From a bacterium (GTDB lineage Bacteria > Orphanbacterota > Orphanbacteria > Orphanbacterales > Orphanbacteraceae): a stretch of 64,000 nucleotides of DNA. This document shows positions 8,701-26,434 of this stretch, in pieces. The DNA lies in contig JALGYY010000017.1 in assembly GCA_025782575.1 (NCBI GenBank), positions 862,232-926,231 on the forward strand, given 5' to 3'. A program made the position numbers and the translations under genes. How positions within the stretch are numbered: the stretch's first letter is position 1; each line of letters begins with the position of its first letter. Below the pieces are notes generated by a model. The model did not search any database and was not told where the DNA came from. It saw only the letters and a program-made list of their open reading frames with translations.

Positions 8701-8869
8701 TGTAGTCATGAAATTTGGCGCAGGCATCCTGAAACTGGCCGACTGAGTAGTAGAGGTCAGCTAGCCGCTCGAGCTTCTGCAGCTTCTCCGGACCATCCTC
8801 GTTAGAGTCAAGCCTCCGGAGAGCGGAAAGCTCGCGCCGAATCAGGCGTTTCTTATCGTCCTGTGTCAT
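5765..8869 (-). CDS. Sigma-54-dependent transcriptional activator with an N-terminal TPR array and a GAF domain (no receiver domain)
   Basis: About 450 aa of TPR-like repeats (...YYSVGQFQDA..., ...GHGYFRTGELSRAREYYEDAL..., ...THRGDLNLAEEAYRDAL...). These are followed by a GAF-like region, an AAA+ core (Walker A GETGTGKQ, GSFTGA loop, FLDEI Walker B) and a Fis-type HTH (NITRMAKLLGISRWGLHKKL). Confidence 0.85.
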   Translation of the reverse strand: MTQDDKKRLIRRELSALRRLDSNEDGPEKLQKLERLADLYYSVGQFQDACAKFHDYRTLGLRQGGLTPIEAVAIRIKEAWCQYERGDYDSVEATLATVINECSSLAEGPAETLKAEAGILHGYLDIRRGRYEEALLRCDKAFAILQRSDDHAAIAKVQICYGHGYFRTGELSRAREYYEDALASARRAGDSTRLVQATINLALVCKEQSDSTRALYLLEQANEVLKETGTFSYRAHVLINMAVIHTHRGDLNLAEEAYRDALRLYLQTGQKQGGVLARIGLSRIQVLRGRPVDAETMMESTLEACREGGYLREEVLVRRDLGDLLRTAGDWEGAITTYRRALEVALPLGEDSEHAIQIGRRIGLAHLRLGDRESASEEFSRALITARKVGERYEEAVLQCSLGMVAGIEGNWTRFDSMFGQGIDMLRRMGERIELGKALVRHVRIGMLHEGLETTDLQLEVAEARRIFLEAGVPLWLGKARIEEARLLNETGEQTKVEHSLAEAERIFTELHDTRHMDQVDLIRRALEDQMVDRSVSRRNDHLAIHELLPSTSMKFDLKSLLEELVARTNGDRGILMVFEGEEGKPIERSIHGLRQREAKGVIEVLHPILEVGFKEGRPFLSTAVASDPRIPGRVLSGGGSVRSLLVVPFHTNADISGAIYLDREDHRAPFASRELDLVVGLVRSQKFVLTLLASRQKELMEENTRLKKQVSHAGRFDEIVTQSEKMYDVLDLVRKVAGTNVTVLIQGETGTGKQLVTRAVHGESPRRDRTLFSINCATLPEQLLESELFGHKAGSFTGAHADKVGLLKEASGSTVFLDEIDKMNPSVQSKLLHVLEEKRIRPLGSNHYIDVDVRFVCASNRDLLNEVHEGNFLEDLYYRLNVIKIDIPPLRERLEDILLLSQYFLRIFSAEMGKEPIRLDEHASQMLLRHNWPGNVRELRSEMRRLVVLCDNNLVGPLDLSSVTQGEDRFGGDATLTPREPGAGSLRDQVAKHEKELLVGYLDRCDGNITRMAKLLGISRWGLHKKLDKHGLR

Positions 8870-10551: not shown

Positions 10552-12591
10552 ATGAATAGCGATCGTGAGACAGGGTCCCGGATCCTGGTCGTCGAAGATG
10601 ATGACACCATTCGCCTCGTCATCTCCCAGGTTCTGGAAGAGGACGGCCATGATGTCACCTCCGCTTCCAGTGGTGAGGAGGCTCTGGCGGAATTCAAGAA
10701 GAGTCCTTCCGACCTGATTCTCACAGACATCATAATGGGAGAGATGAGCGGGATCGACCTGCTGAGAGAGGTCCGGGAGATCTCAGCGGAAACGCCGGTC
10801 ATCGTTGTCACCAGTCAGGCATCTTTTGAAACCGCCGCGGCCGCGCTTCGGCTCGGTGCTTACGACTATCTGACCAAACCCTTTGAAGATCTGGACGTGA
10901 TCTCCGCTGCCGTCAAACGGGCCGTGGAATGGCTCGAGATGGGGAAACACAATCGGAGACTCCTGGAGGATCTGGAGAAAAATGCGGAGGAACTGAGAAA
11001 GGCCAAGGAGGCAGCGGAAAAAGCGACCCGAACCAAATCCCAGTTTCTTGCGAATATGAGTCACGAAATCCGTACACCAATGAACGGTGTTCTCGGCATG
11101 CTCGATCTCGTTCTCAATGCGAATCTCCCGGAAGAGCAGAAGGAATGCCTGGAAATCGCCCGCGACTCTGCCGAGTCCCTTCTCACATTGATCAACGATA
11201 TTCTCGACTTCTCCAAAATTGAAGCACGCGAGCTCGTCATCGAAGAAGTTCCGTTCGACCTGGGAGCTTCGGTCGAGGGGGTGGCCGACGTGCTCGCTCC
11301 CCTGGCGGAAGAGAAGGGGCTGGAACTGCTCGTCCGATATCATCCCGGGGCTCCCCGATCAGTCGTGGGGGATCCGGGCCGGATTCGCCAGGTACTGATG
11401 AACTTCATCAGCAACGCGATCAAATTTACCCACCAAGGCCACATTATGGTCGAGGTTGCATGCGAAGCTGGTGGCGCCGATGATGCCGATTGCTCCGAGT
11501 ACGTGATCCGGGTCATTGACACAGGCATCGGTATTCCCGAAGAGAAAACCGAATCGGTTTTCGATTTGTTCACGCAGGCTGACTCGTCAACCACTCGCGA
11601 GTACGGCGGAACAGGCTTGGGACTCTCCATCTCCAAGCAGCTGATCGAGCTGATGGGCGGGTCGATCGGTGTCCGGAGCGCTCCGGGCGAAGGGTCGGAT
11701 TTCTGGTTCCGGCTACGCCTACCGCTCAGTGAATCCGTTCCGTCCTCTTCGCCGACGGACGACTCACTCGCAACTGCTCGGGTGCTTGTAGTGGATGACC
11801 TCGAAGTGAGTCGGCAGGTCGTTCTGGAGTTGGTCGACCACATGAGTATGCGCCACAGTACGGCGACCGGCGTGGACGAAGCTGTCGAAGCATTCCGCGA
11901 GGCACGATCTACCGGCGATCCGTTCAGTTTCGCCATTATCGATAACCGTGCTCCCACCAGAATCGGCGAGGCATTCTCCCGGACTGTAAGCACAGATTCA
12001 GACCTCTCCTCGATGCCCATGGTCTTTCTCACAACTAAGTCCGAGCGTTGGGGCGCTGACCGGCCGAAGAAATCCGGCTTCATTTCTTGGGCCTTGAAGC
12101 CACTGATGCTGAATAAGCTCCAGGAGGCCGTGGCTGCCGTGTGGCCTGCCTCCGGTCACAGCGCTGAAGACCGGAACGACCGGGATTCTCAGGCGACCGA
12201 TCCCATTCTTGATGAGTTCCTCGTCAATCTTCAGGTTCTGGTTGCCGAAGACAACCCGGTCAATCAGAAAGTCGCATCCATGCTCCTCGAAAAGCTCGGT
12301 TGCCAGGTCGATGTCGCCGCCACCGGCCGGGAAGCGGTCGAGATGATCGGGAGCAAGGAATACGGCCTCGTACTGATGGACTGTCAAATGCCCGAGATGG
12401 ACGGCTACGAAGCGACTCGCGAAATCAGGCGTCTTATGGACCCTGAGTCCCGCATTCCGATCATTGCCCTTACCGGCAACGCCATGCAGGGCGATCGGGA
12501 AAAGTGCATCGACGCGGGCATGGACGACCACATCCTCAAGCCGATACGAAGCGAAACCCTTGAGGCGATCCTGGAGAAGTGGATCGACTAG
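10552..12591 (+). CDS. Hybrid sensor histidine kinase / response regulator (REC-HisKA-HATPase-REC-REC)
   Basis: N-terminal receiver (RILVVEDDD...LILTDIIMGEMSG), H-box FLANMSHEIRTPMNGV, and the N/G boxes of HATPase_c (NAIKFT, DTGIGI, GGTGLGLSI). Two further receivers follow (VLVVDD...AIID; VLVAEDNPVNQ...LMDCQMPEMDG...KP). Confidence 0.9.
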   Translation: MNSDRETGSRILVVEDDDTIRLVISQVLEEDGHDVTSASSGEEALAEFKKSPSDLILTDIIMGEMSGIDLLREVREISAETPVIVVTSQASFETAAAALRLGAYDYLTKPFEDLDVISAAVKRAVEWLEMGKHNRRLLEDLEKNAEELRKAKEAAEKATRTKSQFLANMSHEIRTPMNGVLGMLDLVLNANLPEEQKECLEIARDSAESLLTLINDILDFSKIEARELVIEEVPFDLGASVEGVADVLAPLAEEKGLELLVRYHPGAPRSVVGDPGRIRQVLMNFISNAIKFTHQGHIMVEVACEAGGADDADCSEYVIRVIDTGIGIPEEKTESVFDLFTQADSSTTREYGGTGLGLSISKQLIELMGGSIGVRSAPGEGSDFWFRLRLPLSESVPSSSPTDDSLATARVLVVDDLEVSRQVVLELVDHMSMRHSTATGVDEAVEAFREARSTGDPFSFAIIDNRAPTRIGEAFSRTVSTDSDLSSMPMVFLTTKSERWGADRPKKSGFISWALKPLMLNKLQEAVAAVWPASGHSAEDRNDRDSQATDPILDEFLVNLQVLVAEDNPVNQKVASMLLEKLGCQVDVAATGREAVEMIGSKEYGLVLMDCQMPEMDGYEATREIRRLMDPESRIPIIALTGNAMQGDREKCIDAGMDDHILKPIRSETLEAILEKWID

Positions 12592-12797
12592 GCCTCATTC
12601 CTTTTCAGTCTCCTTCTGTCCCTCACCGCCGGCACCCGCCCGACTCACCTCGATATAAAAAACGAGTCAAATCACCTAAAATCGAGTCAAGATTTCTCCG
12701 TTTATTGCCGATTCTTGGAGAGGATCAAAGTGCGCCGGCGGCTTCGGTTCGAGGCGTACGTGCGGGGCATTTGGCTTGAAAGAGGTACTCTAGGGAC

Positions 12798-15700
12798 GTG
12801 GCAGAACATCGGCCCATTTCAGCCAGACTACTTGGATGCCCCCTTCTGTTCGGTTTCCTCCTCATGCTGGCCGGCTCCGGCTCGGTGGCCCAGGCCGCAT
12901 CGTGGTTCGATTCCGACTGGCAGTACCGTCAACTCATTACGATTTCCCCCAGTGTGACCAACTCTGATCTGACCGATTTCCCGTACATGCTGAAGATTAC
13001 TGATATCACGAACCCTCTCTTCGACAATGCCCAGATCGATGGCGATGACATCGTGTTAACCGCGGACGACGGCATATCCACGCTCGATCATGAGATCGAG
13101 TACTACGATAGCGTGGCTGAGACTCTCGTCGCCTGGGTTCGGATCCCGACACTCTCATCGACCGTGTCGACCGACATCTATATGTACTATGGCAATGGTT
13201 CTGTCTCTACTCAGGAGAACGTGCCCGGAGTCTGGAGCAACGGCTACGAAGCGGTCTATCACCTGCACGATGACTTCAACGATTCAAAAGGGAGCCATAA
13301 CGGCACCAACAGCGGATCGGCTGATGTGACAGGACAGATCGCCGATGGGCAGGATTTCTATCCGGATGACGGAGTTGACGAGATCTCGATCGGGAACTGG
13401 AACTTCACCGGTGATTCGCTCACCATCTCCGCCTGGATGAAATCCGACGACGGTTTCGCCCAGGACGATCCCCGTATTATCTCGAAAGCGAATTCGGGCA
13501 CTCCCGAGGATCACGTGTATATGCTGAGCCTGTATGATGGAACCATCAACGAGAACAGGCTTCGATTCCGCGTCAAGACCGGCTTGAGCGACACTCTCGG
13601 AATGACGGAGCTTCAAGGTAGCTCACCGAACGGGTATCTCCCCGATGCGGCCGAGTGGTATCTGGTCGCCGGGACATACGACGGGACACAGATGCGGCTT
13701 ATCCGTGACGGCCTGGATGCCGGAAGCACGGCTAAGACCGGGCTGATCCGGCAGAACGCATGGCCTTCCTATATCGGCAACAACACGGCCAACACGGACA
13801 CCGCGCTCTACTCATTCGACGGCAAACTCGATGAGGTGAGAATCGCATCAGCCGCACGATCACTTGACTGGATGGGCGCGAATTACCTCAGCCAGTCATC
13901 GCCGGCCTCCTATGTAACCCTGGGCGCCCCGGACACCTCGTACACGGTGGGCGGCAGGGTGTTCGAGGACGCCGACTTTACTGGCACGGCTTCGGACTAT
14001 GATGGCGGGACCGGCGACTCGGTGAGCTCGAATGTGGACGTGGAATTATATGACGCGAGCGATAGCACTTTCATCTCGTCAACTGTGACCGACGTCTCCG
14101 GAAACTATAACTTTGGCGGGCTCCTCAACGGGGATTATATCGTACGTGTCCGTTCGGTGACGATGGGTGACTCCGATACTAAGCCGGCGGGCGGGCTGAA
14201 CGGCACCGTTCCCGGAACTTGGCCATACCCCCATCCCGAGATGACCTGGGGGAATGGGGCAGCCGTCTACGGCGGGCAGAGCGCTACGGCGGACGACGCG
14301 GATACCGGAGACAATGCGGGGATCGGAGACACGCATCTGCCGGTGGCGGTAAGTAGTGGAGATGTAACCGGTGTCAACTTCGGCTTCGCCTACAACCTGA
14401 TCGTAAATACCGAGGACGACGGTCTCGCTGACAACACCCGCAGCGATCAGGGGAGTTTTCGGCAGTTCCTGAAGAACGCCAACGCCATCGGATCAGCGAG
14501 CGGCACCACGGCAAACAGCAGCGAGTTCCGGATGCAGGTTCCAGCCGTCGTCGTCGATGGTCCCGACAGTTGGTGGCGGTTTACCGCGACCGCTGTGAAC
14601 CCTCCGATCTCGGATGGGGGCACAACGGTCGATGGGTCGACGCAACGGGCGAATTCCGGTGCCGACTCGAATACAAGGGGTCCGGAGATCGAACTTTTCG
14701 GCAACGGAATCAGCGCCGTCGGCCTGACACTTTCCGGTGCGAACGAGGTGGTGCGGGAGCTGGCCATCAACGGGTTTGGAGGGACCGGCGTACTCGTGAC
14801 CAGCAACGGCGGGAGCACAATCGCCGGTTGTTACATCGGCACGAATGCCATCGGGACACTCGTCTCGGCGAACGATGGTTACGGGATCGAAATCCGGACC
14901 TCAGGGAATACGATCGGTGGAACGCTTGCCGGCGATCGGAATATCGTCTCCGGCAGCGGAATCGACGGGATCTACCTGAACGGAGCGACCGCCACCGGAA
15001 ACCAGATCCTCGGAAACTACATCGGGGTAAACGCCGCCGGAGACGGTGACTTCGGCAACGGCCAGCACGGTATTGTCGTCGAGGGCCCGGACAATCAAAT
15101 CGGGGGCGTTGCCGCCGGTGCTCGAAACGTAATATCCGGGAACACACGGTCTGCGATCTTTCTTACAGGAACCTCGGCCATGAACAATGTCATCCGGGGG
15201 AACTACCTCGGGACGGACGAAAGCGGAGTCTCGTCTATCGCGAATGACTGGGATGGTGTCACGATTCGTGCCGGTGCGACACAAGACACGATCGGTGGAA
15301 CGACCACCGAATCCAGGAACATCATTGCCGGAAACACGGAAGACGGAATCTACATCGGCGATGAAGCGAGCGACGGCCATGTGATCGAGGGAAACTGGAT
15401 CGGCGTTAATGCTCTGGGGAACCCGCTGGCGAACGGATGGCACGGTATCACGGTGGATCTCGGGGCGGACGCTTGCCGGATCGGCGGATCGGTGACTGGT
15501 GCGGGAAATGTCATCGCATCGAACGGGATGGATGGCGTGCGCATCATGACCGGCAGTCTGGGCAACTCCATACTCGGCAACTCCATTTACTCGAACTCGG
15601 AGCTCGGCATCGACCTGAACAACGACGATGTCACGCTGAACGACGACGACGATCCGGACACCGGGCCGAACAACTTCCAGAACTTCCCGGTCCTCACCTC

Positions 15701-16409
15701 GGTCGTCACGACCGGGAGCGGAAGCATCCTCATTGAAGGCACATTGAACAGCGTCGCGAGCGCCGACTACCGGGTCGAATTCTTCTCGAACGCCACTGCA
15801 GACGTATCCGGCTACGGCGAGGGGGAAACTTATCTTGGCGCCGACACGGTGACGACCGATGGCTTGGGGGACGTGAGCTTCAGCGTCACCCTCTCCGCCA
15901 CTGTCGGCGCCGGCGCCTATATCACAGCCACTGCCACCGATCCATCAGGCAACGCGTCCGAATTCAGCGCAACGACCACGGCTGTCCTCTACGTACCCGT
16001 GATTACCAAGAAAGCTTACTTTTCCGATGATTCCGCAGTACCGGACGGGGCGATTCTTCCCGCCGGTACCGAGATCAGATACCTGCTCTATGTCAACAAT
16101 CGCCTCACCGCGCGAAATGATGTTGTCCTCCAGGATGTCCTCGACCCCACATTCGCTTACGTGGGGGGGACGATCCTCTATGACAACAGCGTGGCGACAT
16201 GCGCCGGCGGAACGTGCACCACATCGGAAGAGTCGACTATTCTTGCTGCGGCTCTCGCGGGAACTGTCGGAACAGACGGGGTAGATGGTGATGTGGTGAG
16301 TTACACGGGCAGCACGTTGGATATAGGGGATGCGATCGTCGCCAATAACCAGTTGGATATTTTGGCTGAAAAAATCTGGGCGGTCGTCTTTACAGTGAAG
16401 ATCAACTGA
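12798..16409 (+). CDS. Large secreted adhesin-like protein: DUF2341, LamG/ConA-like lectin, SdrD/Cna-B-like, parallel beta-helix repeats, C-terminal DUF11-like domain
   Basis: GTG start with signal peptide ...LLMLAGSGSVAQA. The DUF2341 signature covers aa 38-135 (WQYRQ.ITI...DFP..L.I....DGDDI.....DG...L.HEIE.YD......VAWVRIP......IYMYYGN). A LamG-like block covers aa ~145-365 (...WYLVAGTYDG..MRL..DG...FDGKLDEVRI). A Cna-B/SdrD-like block follows (GGRVFEDADF...GNYNFGGLLNGDYIVRV). About 9 repeats of a 22-23-aa beta-helix unit (GN.IGG....RN.ISGN...GI.I) span aa ~640-935. The DUF11-like end covers aa 1068-1203. Confidence 0.85.
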   Translation: MAEHRPISARLLGCPLLFGFLLMLAGSGSVAQAASWFDSDWQYRQLITISPSVTNSDLTDFPYMLKITDITNPLFDNAQIDGDDIVLTADDGISTLDHEIEYYDSVAETLVAWVRIPTLSSTVSTDIYMYYGNGSVSTQENVPGVWSNGYEAVYHLHDDFNDSKGSHNGTNSGSADVTGQIADGQDFYPDDGVDEISIGNWNFTGDSLTISAWMKSDDGFAQDDPRIISKANSGTPEDHVYMLSLYDGTINENRLRFRVKTGLSDTLGMTELQGSSPNGYLPDAAEWYLVAGTYDGTQMRLIRDGLDAGSTAKTGLIRQNAWPSYIGNNTANTDTALYSFDGKLDEVRIASAARSLDWMGANYLSQSSPASYVTLGAPDTSYTVGGRVFEDADFTGTASDYDGGTGDSVSSNVDVELYDASDSTFISSTVTDVSGNYNFGGLLNGDYIVRVRSVTMGDSDTKPAGGLNGTVPGTWPYPHPEMTWGNGAAVYGGQSATADDADTGDNAGIGDTHLPVAVSSGDVTGVNFGFAYNLIVNTEDDGLADNTRSDQGSFRQFLKNANAIGSASGTTANSSEFRMQVPAVVVDGPDSWWRFTATAVNPPISDGGTTVDGSTQRANSGADSNTRGPEIELFGNGISAVGLTLSGANEVVRELAINGFGGTGVLVTSNGGSTIAGCYIGTNAIGTLVSANDGYGIEIRTSGNTIGGTLAGDRNIVSGSGIDGIYLNGATATGNQILGNYIGVNAAGDGDFGNGQHGIVVEGPDNQIGGVAAGARNVISGNTRSAIFLTGTSAMNNVIRGNYLGTDESGVSSIANDWDGVTIRAGATQDTIGGTTTESRNIIAGNTEDGIYIGDEASDGHVIEGNWIGVNALGNPLANGWHGITVDLGADACRIGGSVTGAGNVIASNGMDGVRIMTGSLGNSILGNSIYSNSELGIDLNNDDVTLNDDDDPDTGPNNFQNFPVLTSVVTTGSGSILIEGTLNSVASADYRVEFFSNATADVSGYGEGETYLGADTVTTDGLGDVSFSVTLSATVGAGAYITATATDPSGNASEFSATTTAVLYVPVITKKAYFSDDSAVPDGAILPAGTEIRYLLYVNNRLTARNDVVLQDVLDPTFAYVGGTILYDNSVATCAGGTCTTSEESTILAAALAGTVGTDGVDGDVVSYTGSTLDIGDAIVANNQLDILAEKIWAVVFTVKIN

Positions 16410-16442
16410 CCGGCATTTCCACCATCCGGCTTCCGACGATGA

Positions 16443-18296
16443 TCAGGAAACGACCGGTACCGATTCCGGTTCGATCCGATCCTTCTCGCCGACCTCCGGA
16501 AGAGATCGATCAACGGTCGGCATGGAAATTGTGAAGGTCGTCCCCTCACCCAGCTCGCTTTCGACTGCAATCTTCCCGCCGTGATCCTCGATTATCCCGA
16601 AGCTGACCGACAGCCCGAGACCGGTCCCCTTCCCCGAGCGCTTGGTCGTAAAGAAAGGCTCGTAGATTTTCCCCATCACTTCAGCGCTCATTCCCGGACC
16701 ATCGTCGGCCACCCGGAGCATCAACGAACCTGACTCACTGATGGCCGTGCTCACCGTAATGACTCCGGGCGCCCCGTCCATGGCCTGTTGAGCGTTGATC
16801 ATCAGGTTCATCACGACTTGCTGAAGCTGGTTCGCGTTGCCGCGTATCGGAAGCAGGCTCTCCCCGAGTTCCCGCCGGAGCTTGACCTGATTCAACTCGA
16901 GTTGGTGATTCACGATTGCGATAGCGTCTTCAACCACAGGATTGATTTCTATTGTCTCGAGCGTCGCCTTTTCCTGGCGAGCAAACCTCAGCAGATTATC
17001 AATGATCGATTTGCAGCGCTTCGTCTCTTTCTCGATCAGATCGAGGTTTTTTCGCAGAGGCGTTCCATCCTCTGACTTCCGCTTGGTGAGCTGCGTAACC
17101 GCCAGAATTCCCGCCAGCGGGTTCTTGATCTCGTGTGCAATGCCGGCTCCAAGTTGCCCGAAGGCCGCCATCTTCTCCGATTGAACGAGTTGAGAGTGGG
17201 CCTCTTCCAGGGCGGTGTCTCGCTCTTTGAGACCGGTCGTCATCCGGTTGAACGCCTGGGCCAGAGTGCCGACCTCGTCCCTGCTGCTGACGGCGACCGT
17301 GACGTCGAATTCACCCTTCGCGATCCGCGTGGTCGCGGAAGCGAGCTTATCCAGAGGTCGGGTGATCAGGGCCGAACCGAATGAACTGGTCAGAACAGCC
17401 AGAACCAGAAGCCCGAGCGCGATAATCAGGAGCTGCTTAAGCAGAGCGCGGGAAGCCATGTTCACTGCCGACCGCGGGATCTGAGCGCATACCGTTACGC
17501 CGCCCACTCCGGCGCTCGCGAAGCCTCCGATCATCAGACGATCGTCGATTTCGTAGACGAGCGTCACCCCTGCGCTGTGTTCATCGAGCCCTCCTTCCAC
17601 CTCCGAAGGGAATTCGATTCTCGCCCGTGCCCCCACTCCGGCAGGTTCCGAATCGGTAAGAAGCATTCCATTCGGACCCACTATCAGGATTTCGAATACC
17701 GGTGATCGTTCAGAAATCCGCCGAAGCCGTTCCGAGCGCGCCACGATCGAGATGATGAGAGACGTACCATCTTTTGATGGCGGCATCGCTTGCGCAAACG
17801 TGATCGTCGGCAGATCTTCGTGCAGCGTTGAATTCTCCAGCCAGATCTCCTTGGAGCCGGAGAGTCCGTCCGGGAAGGGATGGCTCAGGCGATATTCACG
17901 AAAGTCTTTCTCCGATAGTCCCCCGCCCACCAGGGTCGCCACGTCATAGACACCGGCGATTTCCTTCCCGTCCTTATGAAGTGTAACGGCAACCAGATCT
18001 TCAGCATCGGTGAAGAAATCCTTCAGAAGATTCCTTCTGCTATCCGCCGTCAGATCCGATTCGCCCATGAGGCGCCCGTACATCTGAAGGCGGTTCCGGT
18101 ATCCCGACAAGACAGATCCGCACTCTTCGGCGGAACTCATCGCCATGATCGATGCGAGATCGCTGATATAGGTCTCTTTATCCTCATGGAACATCTCTGC
18201 CATCGTAAAGGTGATCAGGCTGATCACGATCGTCACGATGGACAGCAAGGCAATCAGGATCTTGAGACGAATCGGAAAGCGCAGTCGGTTTTTCAT
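16443..18296 (-). CDS. Sensor histidine kinase with a periplasmic sensor domain (TM, ~250-aa periplasmic region, TM, HAMP, HisKA, HATPase)
   Basis: TM1 is ILIALLSIVTIVISLITF and TM2 is LLIIALGLLVLAVLTSSF. The HAMP region is ...ITRPLDKLASATTRIAKGEFD...LAQAFNRM, the H-box is AGIAHEIKNPL, and the ATPase boxes are NLMINAQQAM, DDGPGM and GTGLGLSV. GGGAGAAAGAG RBS. No response regulator is adjacent. Confidence 0.85.
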   Translation of the reverse strand: MKNRLRFPIRLKILIALLSIVTIVISLITFTMAEMFHEDKETYISDLASIMAMSSAEECGSVLSGYRNRLQMYGRLMGESDLTADSRRNLLKDFFTDAEDLVAVTLHKDGKEIAGVYDVATLVGGGLSEKDFREYRLSHPFPDGLSGSKEIWLENSTLHEDLPTITFAQAMPPSKDGTSLIISIVARSERLRRISERSPVFEILIVGPNGMLLTDSEPAGVGARARIEFPSEVEGGLDEHSAGVTLVYEIDDRLMIGGFASAGVGGVTVCAQIPRSAVNMASRALLKQLLIIALGLLVLAVLTSSFGSALITRPLDKLASATTRIAKGEFDVTVAVSSRDEVGTLAQAFNRMTTGLKERDTALEEAHSQLVQSEKMAAFGQLGAGIAHEIKNPLAGILAVTQLTKRKSEDGTPLRKNLDLIEKETKRCKSIIDNLLRFARQEKATLETIEINPVVEDAIAIVNHQLELNQVKLRRELGESLLPIRGNANQLQQVVMNLMINAQQAMDGAPGVITVSTAISESGSLMLRVADDGPGMSAEVMGKIYEPFFTTKRSGKGTGLGLSVSFGIIEDHGGKIAVESELGEGTTFTISMPTVDRSLPEVGEKDRIEPESVPVVS

Positions 18297-18315: not shown

Positions 18316-19578
18316 TCAGTACTTCGCCGAGATTATCTCGGACCGGTACGTTGTGTTCCCTACCCGGTCAAGTGCTTCGACCACGACAACATTCAAGCCG
18401 CGCTCGAGGGCGACTGTATCTTCAAAGAATCCCGCTCGATCCATGGATACTCTTACCTTCTGAATAAATACGATTGATCCTGGTTCCGCTTTCCCCCGAA
18501 GGACCAGGTGATCCGCGTTCACCGGGCCGGAGGGGAAATCGATCTGCAGCTTCGGCGCCACCATATCTCCGACGAGCCGGAAGCTGCGCGCCTGACTCGC
18601 CGACCCTTCGAGGTCGGCCGCAAGCCCGATCACCTTCCAGTAGTACGTCCCGCCGGTCAGATTGCCGAGAGTGTGTTCTTCTCCTCTGATTCTTGAATCA
18701 TAAACCACATTGCCGAATTTCTTATCTCGCGCAATCTGGAGGCGGTATGAGCCTGCCCCCTCCCCCTTCTTCCACTTGAGCCGGATCCGGGGCGGACTTT
18801 CGCGGTAGTAAGTGACATTCCCGTTGTCCGGTGCCAATAGAGTCGGTCGATCAGGAAGCGGGCTGACGAACACCGGCTCCTCGTCCTCCGAGGGCCCGAG
18901 AACGAGCGCTTCATTCGCCTTCAACGTGACGGTTTTCCCGTGGGAGGAGACCTCGGCCGTTCCTTCGTAAACCGAAATCGTGGCTGACTGATCGTCGTGA
19001 ACCACTATCCGGAATGAGGCATCTTCCGTACTGCCCTTGCTCGATCCGATCTCCGAAGTTCCGCCCGCCGTAACGACCTGGACAGTGAGAGCATCGGTAC
19101 CACCGCCGGAGATTCTCCCCCACAGCTCTCCTGAGAGCACCATCATCGATGCACGCCGTGATCGGTCGCCCTTCTCCGCTTTGTAATCCTTGATCACCAC
19201 CAGGGAGTTCTCCCCCAGGATGATCTCGCTCTCTTCACCAAAGGCGATCGTTGCCGCGGACTTCTCAAAGGTCTGAATCGCATGCTGCCGTCCGAGAGAC
19301 ATGCCTCCGTTGGACGATCCCCAGACAAGACCGTCGAATGGCTTGTCTTTTACTTTTCTCTGCACATCGGAGAGCGTGGCGACTTGAATCCATTCCTGGT
19401 CTGTCCGGGTAGACAGCTTTCCCGGGTTCACCAGTCCGAGAAGTCCGGAACCCTCCGGCAACAGAGCAGTCAGCATGCTAAGTAGCACAAGAAAGAAACC
19501 GACCACCAGTACGAGAGCGATCGTGATCTCCGTTACTCGCTGGACAATGCTGTTCACTCTCATCTTCTTGAGCCTCAT
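18316..19578 (-). CDS. Membrane-anchored FecR-domain protein with C-terminal Fn3/Ig-like domains
   Basis: Start chosen at ATG 19578 (MRLKKMRVNS...). It shares one base with the upstream TAA (TAATG). The TM anchor is ITIALVLVVGFFLVLLSMLTALL. The FecR-like block is ...ATIAFGEESEIILGENSLVVIKD...RISGG. An Fn3-like segment (PRIRLKWKKGEGAGSYRLQIARDKKF...GTYYWKV) and an Ig-like tail (LVLRGKAEPGSIVFI...GLNVVVVEALDRVGN) follow. Confidence 0.75.
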   Translation of the reverse strand: MRLKKMRVNSIVQRVTEITIALVLVVGFFLVLLSMLTALLPEGSGLLGLVNPGKLSTRTDQEWIQVATLSDVQRKVKDKPFDGLVWGSSNGGMSLGRQHAIQTFEKSAATIAFGEESEIILGENSLVVIKDYKAEKGDRSRRASMMVLSGELWGRISGGGTDALTVQVVTAGGTSEIGSSKGSTEDASFRIVVHDDQSATISVYEGTAEVSSHGKTVTLKANEALVLGPSEDEEPVFVSPLPDRPTLLAPDNGNVTYYRESPPRIRLKWKKGEGAGSYRLQIARDKKFGNVVYDSRIRGEEHTLGNLTGGTYYWKVIGLAADLEGSASQARSFRLVGDMVAPKLQIDFPSGPVNADHLVLRGKAEPGSIVFIQKVRVSMDRAGFFEDTVALERGLNVVVVEALDRVGNTTYRSEIISAKY

Positions 19579-22500
19579 TAGTACCATCCCTGTAATCTCA
19601 TGAACCAACCTCTCACCGAGTAGTCGTCCATGGAATACTCGTTATCGGAGAAGTCCGTGAAGTTGTAGCCCATCCCGAGTCGGAAGTTCTTCAGCAACGA
19701 CCAGGTCGCCTCATTCAACCAGCCCTTTCGATAGTCCTTCGCCTCTTCCTGGTGAAGGACCCTGTATTCCACGCCCAATCCGAGCTCCCGCCAGAGCCCG
19801 AGGTTGATTCTTTGGATGCCGAGGTAAGTGTGGGTCGTTACATCCGGGCGATCTTCGATCTTCTCATTCTTGATTCTCGCCGCTCCCTTTCCAAACCATT
19901 CGATACGTGGATGCACTTCGGCAACAAGTTCCACGGAAACAACGTCCATCCGTTTCTCATCCCGATCCATCTCGGCAAGAGCGCCGGGACGCATATCAAA
20001 GAGGTGGGAATAGCGGGCGAGCGCGTTCACTCGGTCGTGGCCGACCGGCCGATAGGCGAAGCCGATCGTCCGTTCTTCGAGACGGGCCTCGTCCTCATCC
20101 CGCTCCCTGTCGCGGGTCTTGCTGAATCGATAGACCCCGAGGAAAGAAAAATCGGGGGAGATCTTGAGATCGATTTGATTAACCGTAAAGTACTGGATCC
20201 GGTCCGCAATTCCGTTTTCGTACCTCACTTCATGGCGGGAACTGGCCTTGATGTTCCGCGTGTCGGAGTAGGCAATGCTTCCCGAGAGTGCGTTTCTCTC
20301 CGAACTCAGGCTGTCGGCATCTACTTGGGAAGTTTCGCCGCCGAGCAGTAGTTTAAGGCCCGGTCCGATCTCCCACTGGCGCTGTATCCCCATGAGAGAA
20401 ACGCGGCGGTCTCCGCTTCGAGTGTTCACCCATTGATACTCACTGTAGATACGGCTTCCCTTGGCGAACCGGGACTCACCTCCGAAGACCGTGGAAGTTT
20501 GATCGTCTCCCCCGCCGTTCAGAACCCTCTCAGTCAGATAGACGCGGCTATCGCCGATTGCCAGCGCGGCGCCGGCACGGCCCGACCGCCCACGCGTTCC
20601 CTCGGTTCCCTCCGCGTCGAGGGAGAGCGAGGGGAGAAGCTGATACGTCAGACCCAAAGTAGTCTGATCATTCTCGGGCCCGGAAAACGTCTGCTGGCGC
20701 TCCACCCGGCCTGAGATTTTCTCATTCGCGTTCGCGCTCAGCTTGACCGCGCCGAACTGGTTGTTCTCCAGGGAATTCCCGTCCCGATCTTCAGAGATTG
20801 AGCGAAGGTATTCCGCGCCGAATCCCCACCGGTCCGCGGCGTGACTCCACTGCACGGACCCGACGGTTTTCCTGGCCACCGTTCCCGCGCTCAGGGAGTC
20901 GGCCGTGAGATCTTCCTGATCGGTCCGCAAGCGCAGCGCCGACCGATCGGTCAATAGAAGCTCTCCGCTCACCCCGACCTTACGTGTACCTCGCTCCTGG
21001 AAGTTCCCGCTCGACTGGAACCCGGCCTCGAGCTCCTTCAGGTATGCCTTGATCAAGTATTTGTCGGGCTTCCGAATCCACTCACCCAGATCGATTTCGG
21101 CCGCCGCTTTCCAGGCCCGGCCCTGACGGGCGCCTTCTGGAGTGACCTCACGGTAGCTGAGCCCCCCATCGCTACTCACGAAGGTCGGTGAATCGGTTCC
21201 TTCCGTCTCCGCGAGCTCCGCCATGATTCGTGAGTTCTCACCTAACCGGATTTCCGCATCCGCCCCTTCCAGGAGGTACTGACCTGATTCGAGCTGATCG
21301 TCCACGTAGGTCGCGCCGACGGAGACTCGATCGCCGAGCTGGCGACGGCCTCGTGCCCCGAACGCATTCTCCTGGAAGAAATCGGCCCTGACCTCGTACT
21401 CCACCTCGATGAAGATCGGATCCCCGGATAGGATTTCCCGGTCCACCAGGTCTCCATCCGGTTCGACACTCGAGATCGGGCGCCGGAACATGATCCGGCC
21501 TTCCTCATACTTGATGGTGTAATCGAAATTCTGCTGTTGCGTCTCCCGTCGGAGAACGAGCCCCGTAATTTTGTCCCGCACCACAAGCGTGACCTGCTCG
21601 CTCCCCTCGATCAGATCGGAGTGACTCAGGTAGTAGAGAGAGCCGCCCGTCCCGGAGAGTTCGTCCCGCACGTGGAGCTGCCTCAGCTCCGCTCCGAAGA
21701 ACACGATCTCTGTGTCAGGTTTCCCGAAGCGTGTCTTGGAAGCGGATCGGTAAGTGGCCTGGCCGCCGTAGAGTGTCCTCCGGTAGGCGGCCAGCTCGGT
21801 GTCCGAGAGCGACAGCGGATAGTTCCCGACCAGAATTCCGATCTCGTCGCTCTCCAGAGCGAGATAGAACTTTCCCTGGCTCTCGCCGTCATAAGTCACG
21901 GAACTCGCATCCCCATAGACGGGGTAGAGCTTGTCAGGATCGAGGTTAGTCAGTAACCGCTCGGTTTTACCCAGGTCGATGTTACGGAAGATACCTTCAT
22001 AGCGATCCTTCTCGCTGTCAAAGGCGGACGTGACGAGATACTTGCCCGCGATGACCCCTTTGAGATAGAACGCAGCTCTTCCTTCCACGTAGAAGGTTCG
22101 TCCATCATCTACGCCGGTTCCTTCCAGGTGTCCCCTTCCGATGTACTCGCCGATCCGCCCCTCCGCAAAAGCGAGCAGGAAGAGTTCGTTCCGTGCCACA
22201 TCGATTTCCCTCTCGATGATTCCGTTACGTCCTTCCGGATCGGTTACCTGAACGGTAAGCAGACTCTTTCCGCGGGGCAGTTCGACGACCCCGTAGAAGC
22301 GGCCGTCTTCCTGGACCTCCAGAGATTGCCCGTTCGCCCGGACCTGGTTCTTCGGTTCCGTCTTCCCTGTGATCCGGAGATGAGCCGTGCTGAGCCGGAC
22401 GCCCGGCGGCGGAAGATCGACGGTAAGTATGGGGATCGCCTCGGCAATGATGAGAGCGTTCCCATCGCCATCCACGTCCGAGGCCAGTAGATCGACGTTG

Positions 22501-25016
22501 ACGATTCTCGATGCGCCCTGCGCGTTTTCTACGAGAATGCCACAGACATTGTGCCCGAGTGACAGCGGGAGTAGAGCCTGGAAATCCCCGCTCGAATTGA
22601 CGGGGATCTCGACCCCGTCAATCAGCAGTCTGTTCCCCGGGTTCGTCCGTCCCTTCAACCGGCACTCCACCAGCGGACTCTCCGAACCGCTGGCGGCGAT
22701 CCGGAACGAGCGGGACGAATCGCCATAGGCAAGACGTTGTTCCTGACGGGGGCTCGTGATTCCGATATGGGGTAGATGGATCGTCCCGCCGACATGCCTG
22801 TCTCCCGACCGGGCGATCTCCACTTCCAGAATGTCCGTTCCGTCATCATCAATCCGAGCGGTGAAGCGTCCGAGTTCGTCTATGGGCAGCGCCACGTCGT
22901 TGATCGACACCTGGGGGCTGGCCTCCGGCGTCTCCAATTCTTCCTGGATCACGACCGGGTGGTCCTGCTCCTCATTCTCCGAGGTTCTACCGGCCGCAAC
23001 CGTCCGGCTTTCCCCGTACCTGCGAATGCTGATCTGATCACCAGGGACCTCTAAGACCTCGGTAAGGTAGGCCGCAGTCGCCTCGGCCATCTTCCTGGAG
23101 TTCTGAGGGTCGTGATACGCGAATCCGGCTCGGTCGGTCTGTCCCTCGATCACGAAGTTCTCGTCCGGATGTTGCCGGATGAACCGGGCTCCCTCTCGGA
23201 GAGCCCGCTTGGCGGTCTCACTCAGGTCGGCCAGGTTTGCATCGAACGCATTTCCTGTCAGTCTGAGTATGGAGGTCGGCTTGCTATCCCCCCCGAAGCT
23301 CCTGCCGGAGTTCTCGGTGGTGATCCTGTCCGGAGAACGAACCTCCACCCGGTACTGATACCCTTCGCCCGCCTCGACACTCTCGTCCCGATCGGGGCGC
23401 ACCGCTGACGAGGTCGTCTCAGCATGTAATCCCTCGCCCTCGATCTGCCTTGTGGCACCGAGAGAGGAAGGGCTCGTTCTCAGGCCATTCTTGTTCGGCA
23501 ACAGAATCCGTTTCCCGTTCACCAGGATGGAAAGTGTCTCGACACTGCCGACGATATCGACCGGGAGGTTTCGCGCATCGGTGCGGATGGAGACGCCCAG
23601 TTCCGCCGGCTTACCGATACCGACCGATTCACCCTCGTATTGAACTCCGAAGCTCGCCTTCGCCATGAGTCCGGGCGTCACCCAGAGTACCCGGCTCTCA
23701 CCGTTCGTCGCTGAAGCGACTGTGGCCAGGCTGTTCAGATTGATTTTCACCATGCGCTGGCCGGGCCTGACGGCGGGGAAGTGATACCGTCCGTCGCCGT
23801 CCGTAATGGCGTACGTGCCGTTGTCGAGGGCGATCATCACTCCGGGAATGCCAAGCTCTCCGTCATCCTGCCGGCCATCGGAATCTTGATCCTCGAAGAC
23901 CTTTCCTATGATCGTGCTGAGATCGAAATCGGGATCCAGGGTGATCGTGACTTCCGCGCTCGCTTCGTTCGACACCAGACAGGAATCGCAATAATCCTTG
24001 GCGACTACACTGTTCCGATAGACTCCGGGCATCGCTCCTGAACCGACGACCAGTTGATACCGGAGCTCCAGGTACCCGGGCTCGTCGGGATCGATGCTCC
24101 CGTCACCATCCACGTCATCCCAGGCGGGAACTGTCCCGATCCGGAAGAGGGCGGGCCGTCGGCCGATCGGGTCGATCAGTCGCCTGCCGGCCAGAGTGGC
24201 GCTTCCTTCGATCAGTTTGAATCCCGCCGGGAATCGGTCTTCCAGCGAGACATCGACCACTTCGAATTCGGCGGTGTTTCGAATCAGCACGGTGTAGGTG
24301 ACCACATCTCCTACAATGCCGTACTTTCGATTCGCTTCTTTCTCGAGTTCGAGAACGGCGAGTTGGGGTTTCACAACCTGCACGACAAAGTCGTTGAAGT
24401 TGTTCGCCTCTCCATCCGCATTTCCGGGAGTCATGGATTGAGCGAGCTCATGATCCCCCGCGATTGATGAGAATGTCCCGAATCCCGCAGTGTCGGGGGC
24501 GGTTGCTCTGAACCGGATTTCGATCGGGGTCCCGGAGACCGTCACTTTGCTGCCGAACGAAATGGTCATCAGCGATTCACTCACCGTCGCCGAATACGTT
24601 TCGGGATCTTGAGCGGGGTTTTTGTTTCGCAACCTCGCTTCCCCGTAACGGACACCCTCGATCTCCACATCCCTGTACCCCCGTGGGATCAGAATGCGGA
24701 TGTGACGAATACCGGAATGATCCGCCATCATCGTCGGCATGACCGTGTAGGTGAACTGATTGCGCATGCTCGATACGAGGATTCGATTCGGTTTGATCTC
24801 AGCGACGATCGCCTCTGCCACCGCGCTCGATCGGTTCAGCGAAACCTGTGCCGTATCAGCGAAAGTGATTCCGTTCGCTCCTCCTGTGAATTCGTTCCGG
24901 ATCGTATCCGCCGGAGCGAGTCGTGGTGAGACGCACAGAGCAACCAGAACCAGAGCGGACAGAATACCCCCTCTCTTCAGGGCGAAGCCGGCGGTATGTC
25001 CGATGAATCGTCGCAT
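19578..25016 (-). CDS. Giant outer-membrane protein: unknown N-domain, DUF11, SdrD/Cna-B-like, OmpA-like, two Ig-like modules, then a C-terminal beta-barrel of about 870 aa
   Basis: 1812 aa with signal peptide ...ALVLVALCVSPRLAPA. DUF11 covers aa ~218-360 (LELEKEANRKYGIVGDVVTYTVLIRNTAEFEVVDVSLEDRFPAGFKLIEGS). A Cna-B/SdrD-like block covers aa ~366-460 (IIGKVFEDQDSDGRQDDGELGIPGVMIALDNGTYAITDGDGRYHF). The OmpA-like module covers aa ~585-690 (FVIEGQTDRAG...NSRKMAEATAAYL...RRYGES). From aa ~945 there are continuous amphipathic beta-strand patterns ending in ...GMGYNFTDFSDNEYSMDDYSVRGWFMRLQGWY. Confidence 0.85.
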   Translation of the reverse strand: MRRFIGHTAGFALKRGGILSALVLVALCVSPRLAPADTIRNEFTGGANGITFADTAQVSLNRSSAVAEAIVAEIKPNRILVSSMRNQFTYTVMPTMMADHSGIRHIRILIPRGYRDVEIEGVRYGEARLRNKNPAQDPETYSATVSESLMTISFGSKVTVSGTPIEIRFRATAPDTAGFGTFSSIAGDHELAQSMTPGNADGEANNFNDFVVQVVKPQLAVLELEKEANRKYGIVGDVVTYTVLIRNTAEFEVVDVSLEDRFPAGFKLIEGSATLAGRRLIDPIGRRPALFRIGTVPAWDDVDGDGSIDPDEPGYLELRYQLVVGSGAMPGVYRNSVVAKDYCDSCLVSNEASAEVTITLDPDFDLSTIIGKVFEDQDSDGRQDDGELGIPGVMIALDNGTYAITDGDGRYHFPAVRPGQRMVKINLNSLATVASATNGESRVLWVTPGLMAKASFGVQYEGESVGIGKPAELGVSIRTDARNLPVDIVGSVETLSILVNGKRILLPNKNGLRTSPSSLGATRQIEGEGLHAETTSSAVRPDRDESVEAGEGYQYRVEVRSPDRITTENSGRSFGGDSKPTSILRLTGNAFDANLADLSETAKRALREGARFIRQHPDENFVIEGQTDRAGFAYHDPQNSRKMAEATAAYLTEVLEVPGDQISIRRYGESRTVAAGRTSENEEQDHPVVIQEELETPEASPQVSINDVALPIDELGRFTARIDDDGTDILEVEIARSGDRHVGGTIHLPHIGITSPRQEQRLAYGDSSRSFRIAASGSESPLVECRLKGRTNPGNRLLIDGVEIPVNSSGDFQALLPLSLGHNVCGILVENAQGASRIVNVDLLASDVDGDGNALIIAEAIPILTVDLPPPGVRLSTAHLRITGKTEPKNQVRANGQSLEVQEDGRFYGVVELPRGKSLLTVQVTDPEGRNGIIEREIDVARNELFLLAFAEGRIGEYIGRGHLEGTGVDDGRTFYVEGRAAFYLKGVIAGKYLVTSAFDSEKDRYEGIFRNIDLGKTERLLTNLDPDKLYPVYGDASSVTYDGESQGKFYLALESDEIGILVGNYPLSLSDTELAAYRRTLYGGQATYRSASKTRFGKPDTEIVFFGAELRQLHVRDELSGTGGSLYYLSHSDLIEGSEQVTLVVRDKITGLVLRRETQQQNFDYTIKYEEGRIMFRRPISSVEPDGDLVDREILSGDPIFIEVEYEVRADFFQENAFGARGRRQLGDRVSVGATYVDDQLESGQYLLEGADAEIRLGENSRIMAELAETEGTDSPTFVSSDGGLSYREVTPEGARQGRAWKAAAEIDLGEWIRKPDKYLIKAYLKELEAGFQSSGNFQERGTRKVGVSGELLLTDRSALRLRTDQEDLTADSLSAGTVARKTVGSVQWSHAADRWGFGAEYLRSISEDRDGNSLENNQFGAVKLSANANEKISGRVERQQTFSGPENDQTTLGLTYQLLPSLSLDAEGTEGTRGRSGRAGAALAIGDSRVYLTERVLNGGGDDQTSTVFGGESRFAKGSRIYSEYQWVNTRSGDRRVSLMGIQRQWEIGPGLKLLLGGETSQVDADSLSSERNALSGSIAYSDTRNIKASSRHEVRYENGIADRIQYFTVNQIDLKISPDFSFLGVYRFSKTRDRERDEDEARLEERTIGFAYRPVGHDRVNALARYSHLFDMRPGALAEMDRDEKRMDVVSVELVAEVHPRIEWFGKGAARIKNEKIEDRPDVTTHTYLGIQRINLGLWRELGLGVEYRVLHQEEAKDYRKGWLNEATWSLLKNFRLGMGYNFTDFSDNEYSMDDYSVRGWFMRLQGWY

Positions 25017-25858: not shown

Positions 25859-26434
25859 CTAGTCCACGGTCGCCTCAAAGAGAACCACCCAGACATTCCC
25901 GGCTGCGATATCGAGTTGCAGGTTCCCCGGCAATCCAAGACTGACAGTTCCGGCACTCTCTCCCCCGACATCGGTGCTGTTCACAGGATCGAGGAGCGCG
26001 GTGTTGCCTTCGACAGCCGCCCAGATGGCCGCTTCCGTCGCGCCGGTCGCAAGGGTGTTGTCCACGCGAATGGAACTGGACACGTATGTAAACCCGGTTA
26101 ACGGATCCGATACGCGAATATCAGAGACGGGCACGCCAGTGCTGTTGTCGATATAGATCATGAACCCCACGACTGTACCGGAAGGGATGTTGGCACCCGG
26201 GCTCAGCTGTGTTCCGTCGGTAAGAAACGCCGTCTTCACAAGAGCGAGTGTGTCGGAGTTCAAAGTGAAAATATTTGAGTTCACAAGATCCGCATCAACA
26301 CCTGCAATACTACCGGTTGCCTGGTTAGTAGCCGCCGTCGCTGTTGAAACCGTCAGAAAACTGACAGAAATGACTACGATCAGCAGCAAGGGGAGGCGAA
26401 TCAGACTGGGTCCACGTATGAAGCCCGTTTTCAT
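25859..26434 (-). CDS. Small secreted DUF11-like subunit A
   Basis: Start moved to ATG 26434 (AAGGAGA RBS). The signal peptide is ...LTVSTATA|ATNQATGS... One DUF11-like domain follows (IPSGTVVGFMIYIDNSTGVPVSDIRVSDPLTGFTYVSSS ... NVWVVLFEATVD). It is a paralogue of subunit B and of the adhesin C-terminus. Confidence 0.7.
   Translation of the reverse strand: MKTGFIRGPSLIRLPLLLIVVISVSFLTVSTATAATNQATGSIAGVDADLVNSNIFTLNSDTLALVKTAFLTDGTQLSPGANIPSGTVVGFMIYIDNSTGVPVSDIRVSDPLTGFTYVSSSIRVDNTLATGATEAAIWAAVEGNTALLDPVNSTDVGGESAGTVSLGLPGNLQLDIAAGNVWVVLFEATVD

Follow-up and report, generated by a model that had tools for sequence, protein, structure and literature searches.

The 64,000-nucleotide stretch analysed here (hereafter the window; positions 862,232 to 926,231 of contig JALGYY010000017.1, assembly GCA_025782575.1, from a bacterium of the Orphanbacterota) carries the gene of a large, tail-bearing adhesin. 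Convergent to it, on the minus strand, lies an operon that encodes two small subunits (A and B), a giant outer-membrane protein, a FecR-like protein and a HAMP histidine kinase (Table 1). The C-terminal module of the adhesin, a 135-residue domain, is homologous to the main domain of both small subunits, and all three resemble the isopeptide-forming domain CLIPPER (formerly DUF11). Judging from the sequences, the adhesin and the operon of these uncultured diderm bacteria probably represent a new variant among fibres built by strand donation, in which the tail of the adhesin would be completed by the N-terminal peptide of a partner protein.

From its N-terminus, the adhesin comprises a signal peptide, DUF2341, LamG and SdrD_B domains, beta-helix-like repeats, an immunoglobulin (Ig)-like domain ending in GNASEFS, and the C-terminal module, for which we propose the role of an acceptor. 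The head had initially been annotated as DUF2341-LamG-CnaB-beta-helix. Pfam recovers DUF2341, Laminin_G_3 and SdrD_B (Big_6 is weak and below threshold), whereas the beta-helix part is recognised from its repeats and has no Pfam match in the adhesin. The module ends with the strand VWAVVFTVKIN* and no Asn-bearing strand follows it. The gene is convergent to the operon, as first described, and the stop codons of adhesin and kinase are 33 nt apart (16410-16442); no terminator-like hairpin was found in this gap.

Table 1. Features of the adhesin gene, the convergent operon and the adjoining regulator gene in the window.
Feature	Position	Strand	Basis or remarks
Hybrid response-regulator/histidine-kinase, 679 aa, three receiver domains + HisKA/HATPase, directly upstream of adhesin	10552..12591	+	Pfam
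Tail-bearing adhesin, 1203 aa	12798..16409	+	Open reading frame (ORF) list, Pfam
Adhesin C-terminal module, residues 1066-1203 (138 residues)	15993..16406	+	BLASTP, hidden Markov model (HMM), alignment, hhalign mapping
HAMP histidine kinase, 617 aa, last operon gene	16443..18296	-	Conserved in related operons
FecR-like protein, 430 aa, membrane-anchored, C-terminal Ig-like domain	18316..19608	-	Pfam, synteny; conserved operon member
Giant outer-membrane protein, 1812 aa	19578..25016	-	Pfam, NCBIfam
Giant protein N-terminal donor-like peptide, D37-R62, DTIRNEFTGGANGITFADTAQVSLNR, includes Asn41	24831..24908	-	
Subunit B, 203 aa	25019..25630	-	Signal peptide, putative donor peptide ATNAVFGG...SAKFEIQSVD (Asn33), module from L65 (Lys69)
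Subunit A, 191 aa by database gene call (start 26434); longest ORF reaches 26494 (211 aa)	25859..26434	-	Signal peptide, putative N-terminal donor peptide, module
Subunit A N-terminal extension, A55-T82 (211-aa numbering), ATNQATGSIAGVDADLVNSNIFTLNSDT	26249..26332	-	Asn57 is the proposed donor Asn

How closely are the three domains related? BLASTP aligns the adhesin tail with subunit A at E=5e-14 (32% identity over 132 residues) and with subunit B at E=8e-7 (26% over 133 residues), and A with B at E=2e-14. An HMM of the module gives the three domains E-values of 5e-40, 1.5e-53 and 1.6e-38, in each case over the full model length and up to the last residue of the protein. Generic DUF11 domains served as controls. 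The tail matches the giant protein's own DUF11 at E=0.023, in an alignment that is out of register, and the textbook DUF11 domain of another tail protein, P0190, at E=0.47 (P0nnn labels denote individual proteins and L0nn labels the genome loci compared); Pfam DUF11 itself stays below threshold on tail, A and B. Because the mutual E-values are strong (1e-7 to 1e-14, against 0.02-0.5 with generic DUF11) and the controls fail, tail, A and B are by sequence one specific subfamily, not mere examples of the generic DUF11 fold. The homology that the initial annotation had proposed from an alignment by eye therefore holds against this control, and the terminal strand noted there (L-D-I ... W-A-V-V-F-T-V) is common to all three domains and conserved across the family. 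Sequence searches of the PDB with subunit A and with the tail gave no matches.

The family is large and its module strictly terminal. The census of tail proteins was taken from a HMMER scan of the adhesin tail against 1.8 billion representative sequences, because the search of a 90%-identity database with the module profile, which yielded 217 clusters, returned small subunits only, mostly B-like, among its best 120. At 50% identity the scan gave 277 clusters, of which 213 have E-values below 1e-10. In the best 150 of the 277 the module lies at most three residues from the C-terminus in 144 cases, on proteins of 105-2937 residues, and the other six matches are partial; an internal or tandem module occurs only in P0199, a natural fusion of an A-type and a B-type subunit. 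The heads sampled include beta-helix, LamG, SdrD_B, NosD-like and DUF6923 types as well as others that match nothing in Pfam, and that of locus L003 consists of propeller-like repeats recognised by eye. The 23 close relatives of subunit A are all unnamed or labelled "TIGR01451 family".

Association between tail and operon recurs in other genomes. The operon (A, B, giant, FecR-like protein, histidine kinase) is conserved in metagenome-assembled genomes (MAGs) of Eisenbacteria, Acidobacteriota/Terriglobia, Nitrospirota, Woeseiaceae and other Proteobacteria, most commonly in the order tail protein, A, B, giant, FecR-like protein, histidine kinase. When subunit A is used as the starting point, a large protein ending in the module is found within 10 kb in six loci (the window, L003, L008, L012, L014 and L016). 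In the opposite direction, a genome scan made with seven tails places the subunit/giant operon next to the tail gene in 8 of 13 loci. Three more (L019, L020 and L024) hold extra tail proteins in MAGs whose operon is on another contig, and the last two lie on contigs too short to judge; tail genes without the operon, which would have refuted the link if common, are therefore not common among these loci. Homologues of the adhesin head with the same tail adjoin operons in L008, L012, L014, L016, L018, L021, L022, L027, L029 and L030, the last of which, another Eisenbacteria MAG, has the same convergent layout as the window. C-terminal position and recurrent synteny thus support the earlier suggestion that the adhesin is a likely tip or cargo component of the operon.

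CLIPPER is the new name of DUF11, a CnaA-like Ig domain with an intramolecular isopeptide bond, in which the Lys is in the first strand, the Asn in a late strand and a catalytic Asp assists (9IFR; PMC12617251). Ordinary CLIPPER domains are typically tandem stalk repeats (PMC12617251). The tail and subunit B have no match to the Pfam and TIGR01451 models at threshold, and subunit A falls below the cut-off (17.3 bits against 24, E=0.0035, for TIGR01451; E=0.047 for DUF7507); P0199 alone passes, barely, with 24.7 against 24.6 bits. Profile comparison with hhalign relates the module to the CLIPPER domain of the giant proteins with 92% probability and E=7e-7 over strands B and C, and sets the invariant Asp of the module on the canonical Asp. 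Lys1071 and Asp1113 of the adhesin occupy the positions of the canonical isopeptide Lys and catalytic Asp. In a suboptimal hhalign alignment, the module ends at about position 105 of the 141 of a canonical CLIPPER domain. By the order of motifs, its last strand, VWAVVFTVKIN, would be the canonical 'L.L.YQLVV' strand, and about 36 canonical residues, including the strand of the isopeptide Asn and the final strand, would have no counterpart in the module. We infer this end-point, since its profile support is a suboptimal, non-significant alignment. It should be kept in mind that the Pfam match stops half-way even in the complete CLIPPER domain of the giant protein; synthetic constructs that join module and donor peptide did not extend the Pfam DUF11/DUF7507 match either.

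The AlphaFold model of subunit A has a core with pLDDT (predicted local distance difference test) of ~90 and an N-terminal peptide below 50, and its best Foldseek matches are the CnaA-type pilin domains of the Gram-positive proteins EbpB, RrgB and PilB, with probability ~1 and weak E-values (5e-3 to 4e-2). In the model, the fold of the module is CnaA/CLIPPER-like and closest to the pilins of Gram-positive sortase pili. The module is thus a member of the CLIPPER superfamily by remote homology and fold that departs from it in three respects: it stays below the Pfam threshold, apparently has no complete intramolecular triad and does not stand in a tandem stalk. Motif order and spacing indicate that the complete Lys-Asp-Asn triad does not occur within a single module.

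The two residues of the triad that the module keeps show no exception: 114 of 114 tails and 147 of 147 subunits (261/261) have both. The complete CLIPPER domain of the giant proteins has lost both Lys and Asn in L002 and L009, the Asn in L006 and the Lys in L008; judged by these sequences, Lys and Asn are dispensable there, unlike the Lys and Asp of the split modules.

Where is the strand that should bear the Asn? A conserved "N-x-A-x-G ... T-L-N" peptide, in which an Asn is followed by a second strand-like motif, stands directly after the A-x-A signal-peptide site of subunit A, subunit B and the giant protein. Its consensus in family A is DNTATGDIAGV.ADL.DSNTFTLN.TT-LALVK, the most conserved stretch of that family, in which N, G, G and L are invariant; it reads ATNAVFGG...SAKFEIQSVD-LALRK in B and DTIRNEFTGG...TAQVSLNR in the giant protein. 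Of 80 A/B subunits, 79 have the putative donor Asn, and none of the 16 giant proteins examined lacks it; most of the latter have the pattern N-x-A/x-[ST]-G ... [VI]-[ST]-L-N-R after the signal peptide. In 131 of the 140 small proteins whose N-terminus is complete, the motif stands 28-42 residues ahead of the Lys; of the nine without it, eight look like fragments of tail proteins.

The spacing from this Asn to the next Lys is 30 residues in A (Asn57-Lys87), 36 in B and 31 in the giant protein of L011, where the peptide leads straight into the start of a canonical CLIPPER domain (DLAVAK). It is 33 in the canonical arrangement of P0190. There, a full Pfam DUF11 domain (positions 1-113 of 114, E=6e-34) stands directly before the tail, ...TLTIDVTVDAGTAGSTIINTASVAAIDQTDPNPGNDSDATNITVVP-R-LFLVKTAF, and the motif NTAS...DATNITVVP-R-LFLVK at the junction parallels NTAT...SNTFTLN-STT-LALVK of subunit A. 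The register of the peptide rests on such motifs and on spacing, because hhalign of a circularly permuted subunit A against canonical CLIPPER gave no significant extension. Peptide and module are distributed in a complementary manner: tail proteins have the module only, behind variable upstream sequence, A and B have both, and the 16 giant proteins have the peptide only, the acceptor module being absent from the giant protein. This distribution speaks against a role of the peptide as a cis-element of the module that follows it, and the predicted disorder of the peptide in the model of subunit A fits a donor strand without being proof of one.

P0199 offers a natural version of the proposed junction. 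In this protein of 367 residues (L017, 8001-9104), an A-type and a B-type subunit are fused in frame with the signal peptide of B deleted, so that merely 'SAAATVL' separates the last strand of A from the Asn peptide of B. The Asn of B lies 11 residues past the last strand of A, which is the canonical spacing between F strand and Asn. The context is normal: the gene follows one for a response regulator-GAF-histidine kinase protein and precedes a gene start cut by the contig end, which probably belongs to the giant protein.

The giant protein would provide the foundation of the assembly. Its N-terminal part consists of the signal peptide, the donor-like peptide and an Ig-like stalk formed by a complete CLIPPER domain (~222 to ~350; Pfam DUF11 covers only residues 222-277) and then SdrD_B. 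After the stalk come an OmpA-like peptidoglycan-binding domain (591-683), an Ig domain (862-939) and a C-terminal region of ~800 residues that closes with an outer-membrane-protein-type ending (...GWFMRLQGWY). Searches of the PDB and Pfam with profiles gave no relative for the barrel region. The protein is conserved in every complete operon examined.

These observations can be joined into a model. The acceptor module would comprise strands A to F and keep K1071 and D1113, without the last two strands, one of which bears the Asn; the missing pair would instead be supplied by the start of the mature protein that follows in the chain. After Sec export, a chain of the form tip protein <- A <- B <- giant protein may assemble, an order that agrees with gene order and with the A-then-B order of the fusion. 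As in donor-strand complementation, the fold of each module would be completed by the donor peptide of the next protein. This would bring the donor Asn close to the acceptor Lys and Asp, and a spontaneous intermolecular isopeptide lock may form. The head would sit at the far end of the chain. At the near end, the OmpA-like domain and C-terminal barrel of the giant protein would serve as the anchor, and this barrel is the only candidate for outer-membrane passage. From the sequence features set out above, we consider it moderately probable that tail and operon are linked by strand donation, with the adhesin tail as the acceptor half of a split CLIPPER domain. An intermolecular covalent Lys-Asn bond is a more tentative proposal; it is plausible because Lys and Asp are retained on the acceptor side and the Asn on the donor side. 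About as tentative is the wider idea of a new diderm class of fibre or display system, in which the CLIPPER domain is split between polypeptides, any tailed protein might be captured by the peptide of A, B or the giant protein, and an autocatalytic Lys-Asn bond would lock it. Such a class could be seen, with the same reserve, as a natural SpyTag/SpyCatcher for pilus assembly that needs neither a sortase nor a chaperone-usher machine. In the literature we found no description of the operon or of a split CLIPPER domain.

Several points weigh against strand donation. No chaperone is evident, and heads of 1000-2900 residues would have to pass the outer membrane. The alignment that sets the end of the module at the F strand is individually non-significant (E=0.37) and is complemented by a reading of strand order; hhalign of the peptide alone against canonical CLIPPER is likewise not significant. 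P0199 is known from one MAG contig only and might be a product of misassembly. AlphaFold left the peptide of B (192-220) undocked in this fusion, with pLDDT below 50; as alignment depth in that segment was zero, this is weak evidence and not a negative result. Finally, the AlphaFold core has nine short strands, is confident without the peptide and might be a self-sufficient fold, and 252 of 261 modules have a further, nearly invariant Asn ahead of the E strand, which could in principle serve as an intramolecular partner of the Lys. The last two points are those expected if the module were a self-contained Ig-like end domain, with a Lys-Asn bond to the pre-E-strand Asn (in the motif 'GN.QL') and a peptide of unrelated function such as targeting. 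Adhesin and small proteins would then share the domain by common descent and simply cooperate at the surface. We regard this as improbable: nine modules that retain Lys and Asp have Ser, Gln or Gly instead of the pre-E Asn, the position of this Asn differs from that of the canonical isopeptide Asn, and such a domain would account neither for the complementary distribution of peptide and module nor for the terminal, non-tandem position of the latter.

Could the module instead be a C-terminal sorting or secretion tag, comparable to the C-terminal domain (CTD) of type IX cargo and read by the giant barrel so that diverse cargo is exported or displayed, with A and B as small substrates or adaptors and no strand-donation fibre at all? 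That hundreds of unrelated heads have the module strictly at the C-terminus would be natural for a tag, as would the extra tail proteins encoded away from the operon in L019, L020 and L024 and the giant protein's standing as the only outer-membrane component. What a tag leaves unaccounted for is the invariant-Asn peptide at the N-terminus of A, B and the giant protein, with its canonical CLIPPER spacing, and the invariance of Lys and Asp in every module; moreover, the CTD model of the type IX secretion system (T9SS) is not among the NCBIfam matches. We therefore consider a tag unlikely, though a better candidate than the self-contained domain, and it is partly compatible with strand donation, since a tag could double as attachment site. 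Least probable is ordinary domain shuffling among surface proteins with a coincidental neighbourhood of adhesin and operon. The adhesin of the window does lie on the opposite strand, outside the operon, and DUF11-like domains are common in surface proteins (PMC12617251). Against coincidence, however, independent lineages repeat the adjacency whether the search starts from the tail (8 of 13 loci) or from the subunit (six loci), the convergent layout is repeated in L030, and the specific sequence kinship holds against the DUF11 controls.

The tip adhesins FimH and PapG of the chaperone-usher pili (type 1 and P pili) provided the analogy that the initial annotation had drawn. As an analogy of design it stands: in both cases the tip has an N-terminal binding head and a C-terminal pilin-like acceptor without a donor strand of its own, the other subunits have an N-terminal extension, the terminal component is distinct and gene order is collinear with the presumed order of assembly. 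Homology or membership is a different matter, and on this point the analogy fails, as there is no usher, chaperone or fimbrial pilin (no PF00577, PF00345 or PF00419 in the six operon proteins by Pfam and NCBIfam). In contrast to chaperone-usher pili, the fold here is CnaA/CLIPPER-like, two strands rather than one are apparently donated, the last donor peptide would belong to the base itself, a giant protein with OmpA-like domain and barrel, and a covalent lock is possible. With the CLIPPER/DUF11 domains (PF01345; 9IFR; PMC12617251), the module shares the Lys of strand A, the 'V.D.L' Asp and the predicted CnaA-like fold, and complete copies are found in the giant protein and directly before the tail of P0190. 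It differs in that the Asn strand of the split module would lie at the N-terminus of partner proteins, which would make the isopeptide bond intermolecular.

A documented precedent for the proposed lock is BsaA of Clostridium perfringens, in which donor-strand exchange is locked by an Asn35-Lys74 isopeptide bond with Glu56 as the catalytic residue (10.1101/2024.11.04.621531). BsaA/TasA fibres likewise have an N-terminal donor Asn ~30-40 residues before the acceptor Lys of the same subunit and an acidic catalytic residue, and chaperone-free polymerisation has been proposed for them. The likeness is in proposed mechanism only: the fold is unrelated (TasA/camelysin-like), BsaA is Gram-positive, SipW-dependent and without outer-membrane anchor or tail-tagged cargo, and Pfam gave no Peptidase_M73 or SipW matches here. 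Sortase pili (RrgB, EbpB, PilB, Spy0128) include the best structural matches to subunit A and share CnaA/CnaB domains, a covalent fibre, a tip adhesin and a basal anchor pilin. Unlike their enzyme-made cross-link, the one proposed here would be autocatalytic and inside a completed domain, and the organisms are diderm. Membership of the sortase pili was rejected: the proteins have no LPXTG motif or hydrophobic tail (they end in ...FTVKIN, ...FEATVD and ...FRVRVK), and no sortase is encoded among the neighbouring genes of any locus. Archaeal threads combine donor-strand complementation with intersubunit isopeptide bonds (PMC9715654), and in the haloarchaeal tafi the LamG-bearing protein TafC forms the tip, alongside an adaptor, a major subunit and a membrane anchor (PMC11821415). 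The four-role logic of the tafi is alike, whereas the folds and the secretion routes of the archaeal fibres (Tat or Sec, across a single membrane) are not; the LamG region of the adhesin matches the NCBIfam TafC model weakly (24 bits against a threshold of 410), a similarity of LamG heads only. Two further assignments were discarded. The type V pili of Bacteroidota have lipoprotein signal peptides with a lipobox Cys, proteolytic maturation and C-terminal donor strands; here, the signal peptides end in A-x-A without a Cys, the conserved peptide stands at the N-terminus and nothing follows the module. For T9SS cargo, NCBIfam gave no match to the Por_Secre_tail CTD in adhesin, A or B.

Pili with covalent isopeptide links are seen as a speciality of Gram-positive bacteria that depends on sortase, and the strand-donation fibres of Gram-negative bacteria (chaperone-usher, type V) are non-covalent. 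If the model is true, an ordinary isopeptide domain has here been shortened, its final strands being supplied by the following subunit; this would link the two fields. It would also account for many unannotated "TIGR01451 family" proteins (at least 277 tail clusters at 50% identity and 217 module-profile clusters at 90%) from Eisenbacteria, Acidobacteriota, Nitrospirota and Woeseiaceae and provide a C-terminal tag that predicts which large adhesins sit on the fibre. New self-ligating pairs of peptide and protein for protein engineering could be obtained from such a system. Even without the covalent step, the conserved operon of the giant OmpA-barrel protein together with the tail-tagged proteins is a new handle on the surface biology of lineages that the present data show from metagenomes only.

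Some smaller observations concern the individual proteins. The adhesin module has a Cys-x4-Cys pair (C1135...C1140, TCAGGTCT, window 16185-16226) in an insertion after strand D. The pair is invariant in tail-type modules, absent from A and B of the window and present in some A-type subunits (L011, L012, P0021); in tail-type modules it is probably a disulfide and is reminiscent of the CTTC disulfide motif reported for the CLIPPER structure 9IFR. In the FecR-like protein, the C-terminal Ig-like domain (Glucodextran_B-type) is similar to the Ig domain ahead of the giant protein's barrel (window 22200-22430, minus strand), with cross-matches down to E ~1e-6 to 1e-8 in several loci; a direct interaction or a common periplasmic partner may underlie this resemblance. 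In the Eisenbacteria MAG L001, the giant protein is called as two ORFs (11284-14298 and 14295-17129) that overlap by 4 nt, one of 1004 residues corresponding to the stalk half, with no OmpA match recorded, and one of 944 residues corresponding to the barrel. This could be either a real split or a frameshift; the related MAG L004 has one ORF of 1954 residues. A PDB search with the DUF11 segment of the giant protein (23967-24374, minus strand; 'LELEKEANRKYGIVGDVVTYTVLI') returned designer pentatricopeptide repeat proteins with summed E-values as low as 4e-18, an artefact of the motif 'VVTYT', which is repeated ten times in the targets; the match to 9IFR in this discarded search was weak (E=0.35).

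Regulatory genes surround the system. Counterparts of the hybrid regulator upstream of the adhesin gene were seen in L002, L003, L006, L008, L011 and L017, and in most related loci the operon is flanked by regulators rich in receiver, GAF, histidine kinase or GGDEF domains, which suggests two-component control of the system and possibly control by cyclic di-GMP. A sigma-54 activator of 1034 residues containing tetratricopeptide repeats (Sigma54_activat, AAA lid, HTH_8) is encoded near the cluster (window 5765-8869, minus strand), and in L002 a large kinase-GAF-sigma-54 activator lies ~7 kb upstream of the operon.

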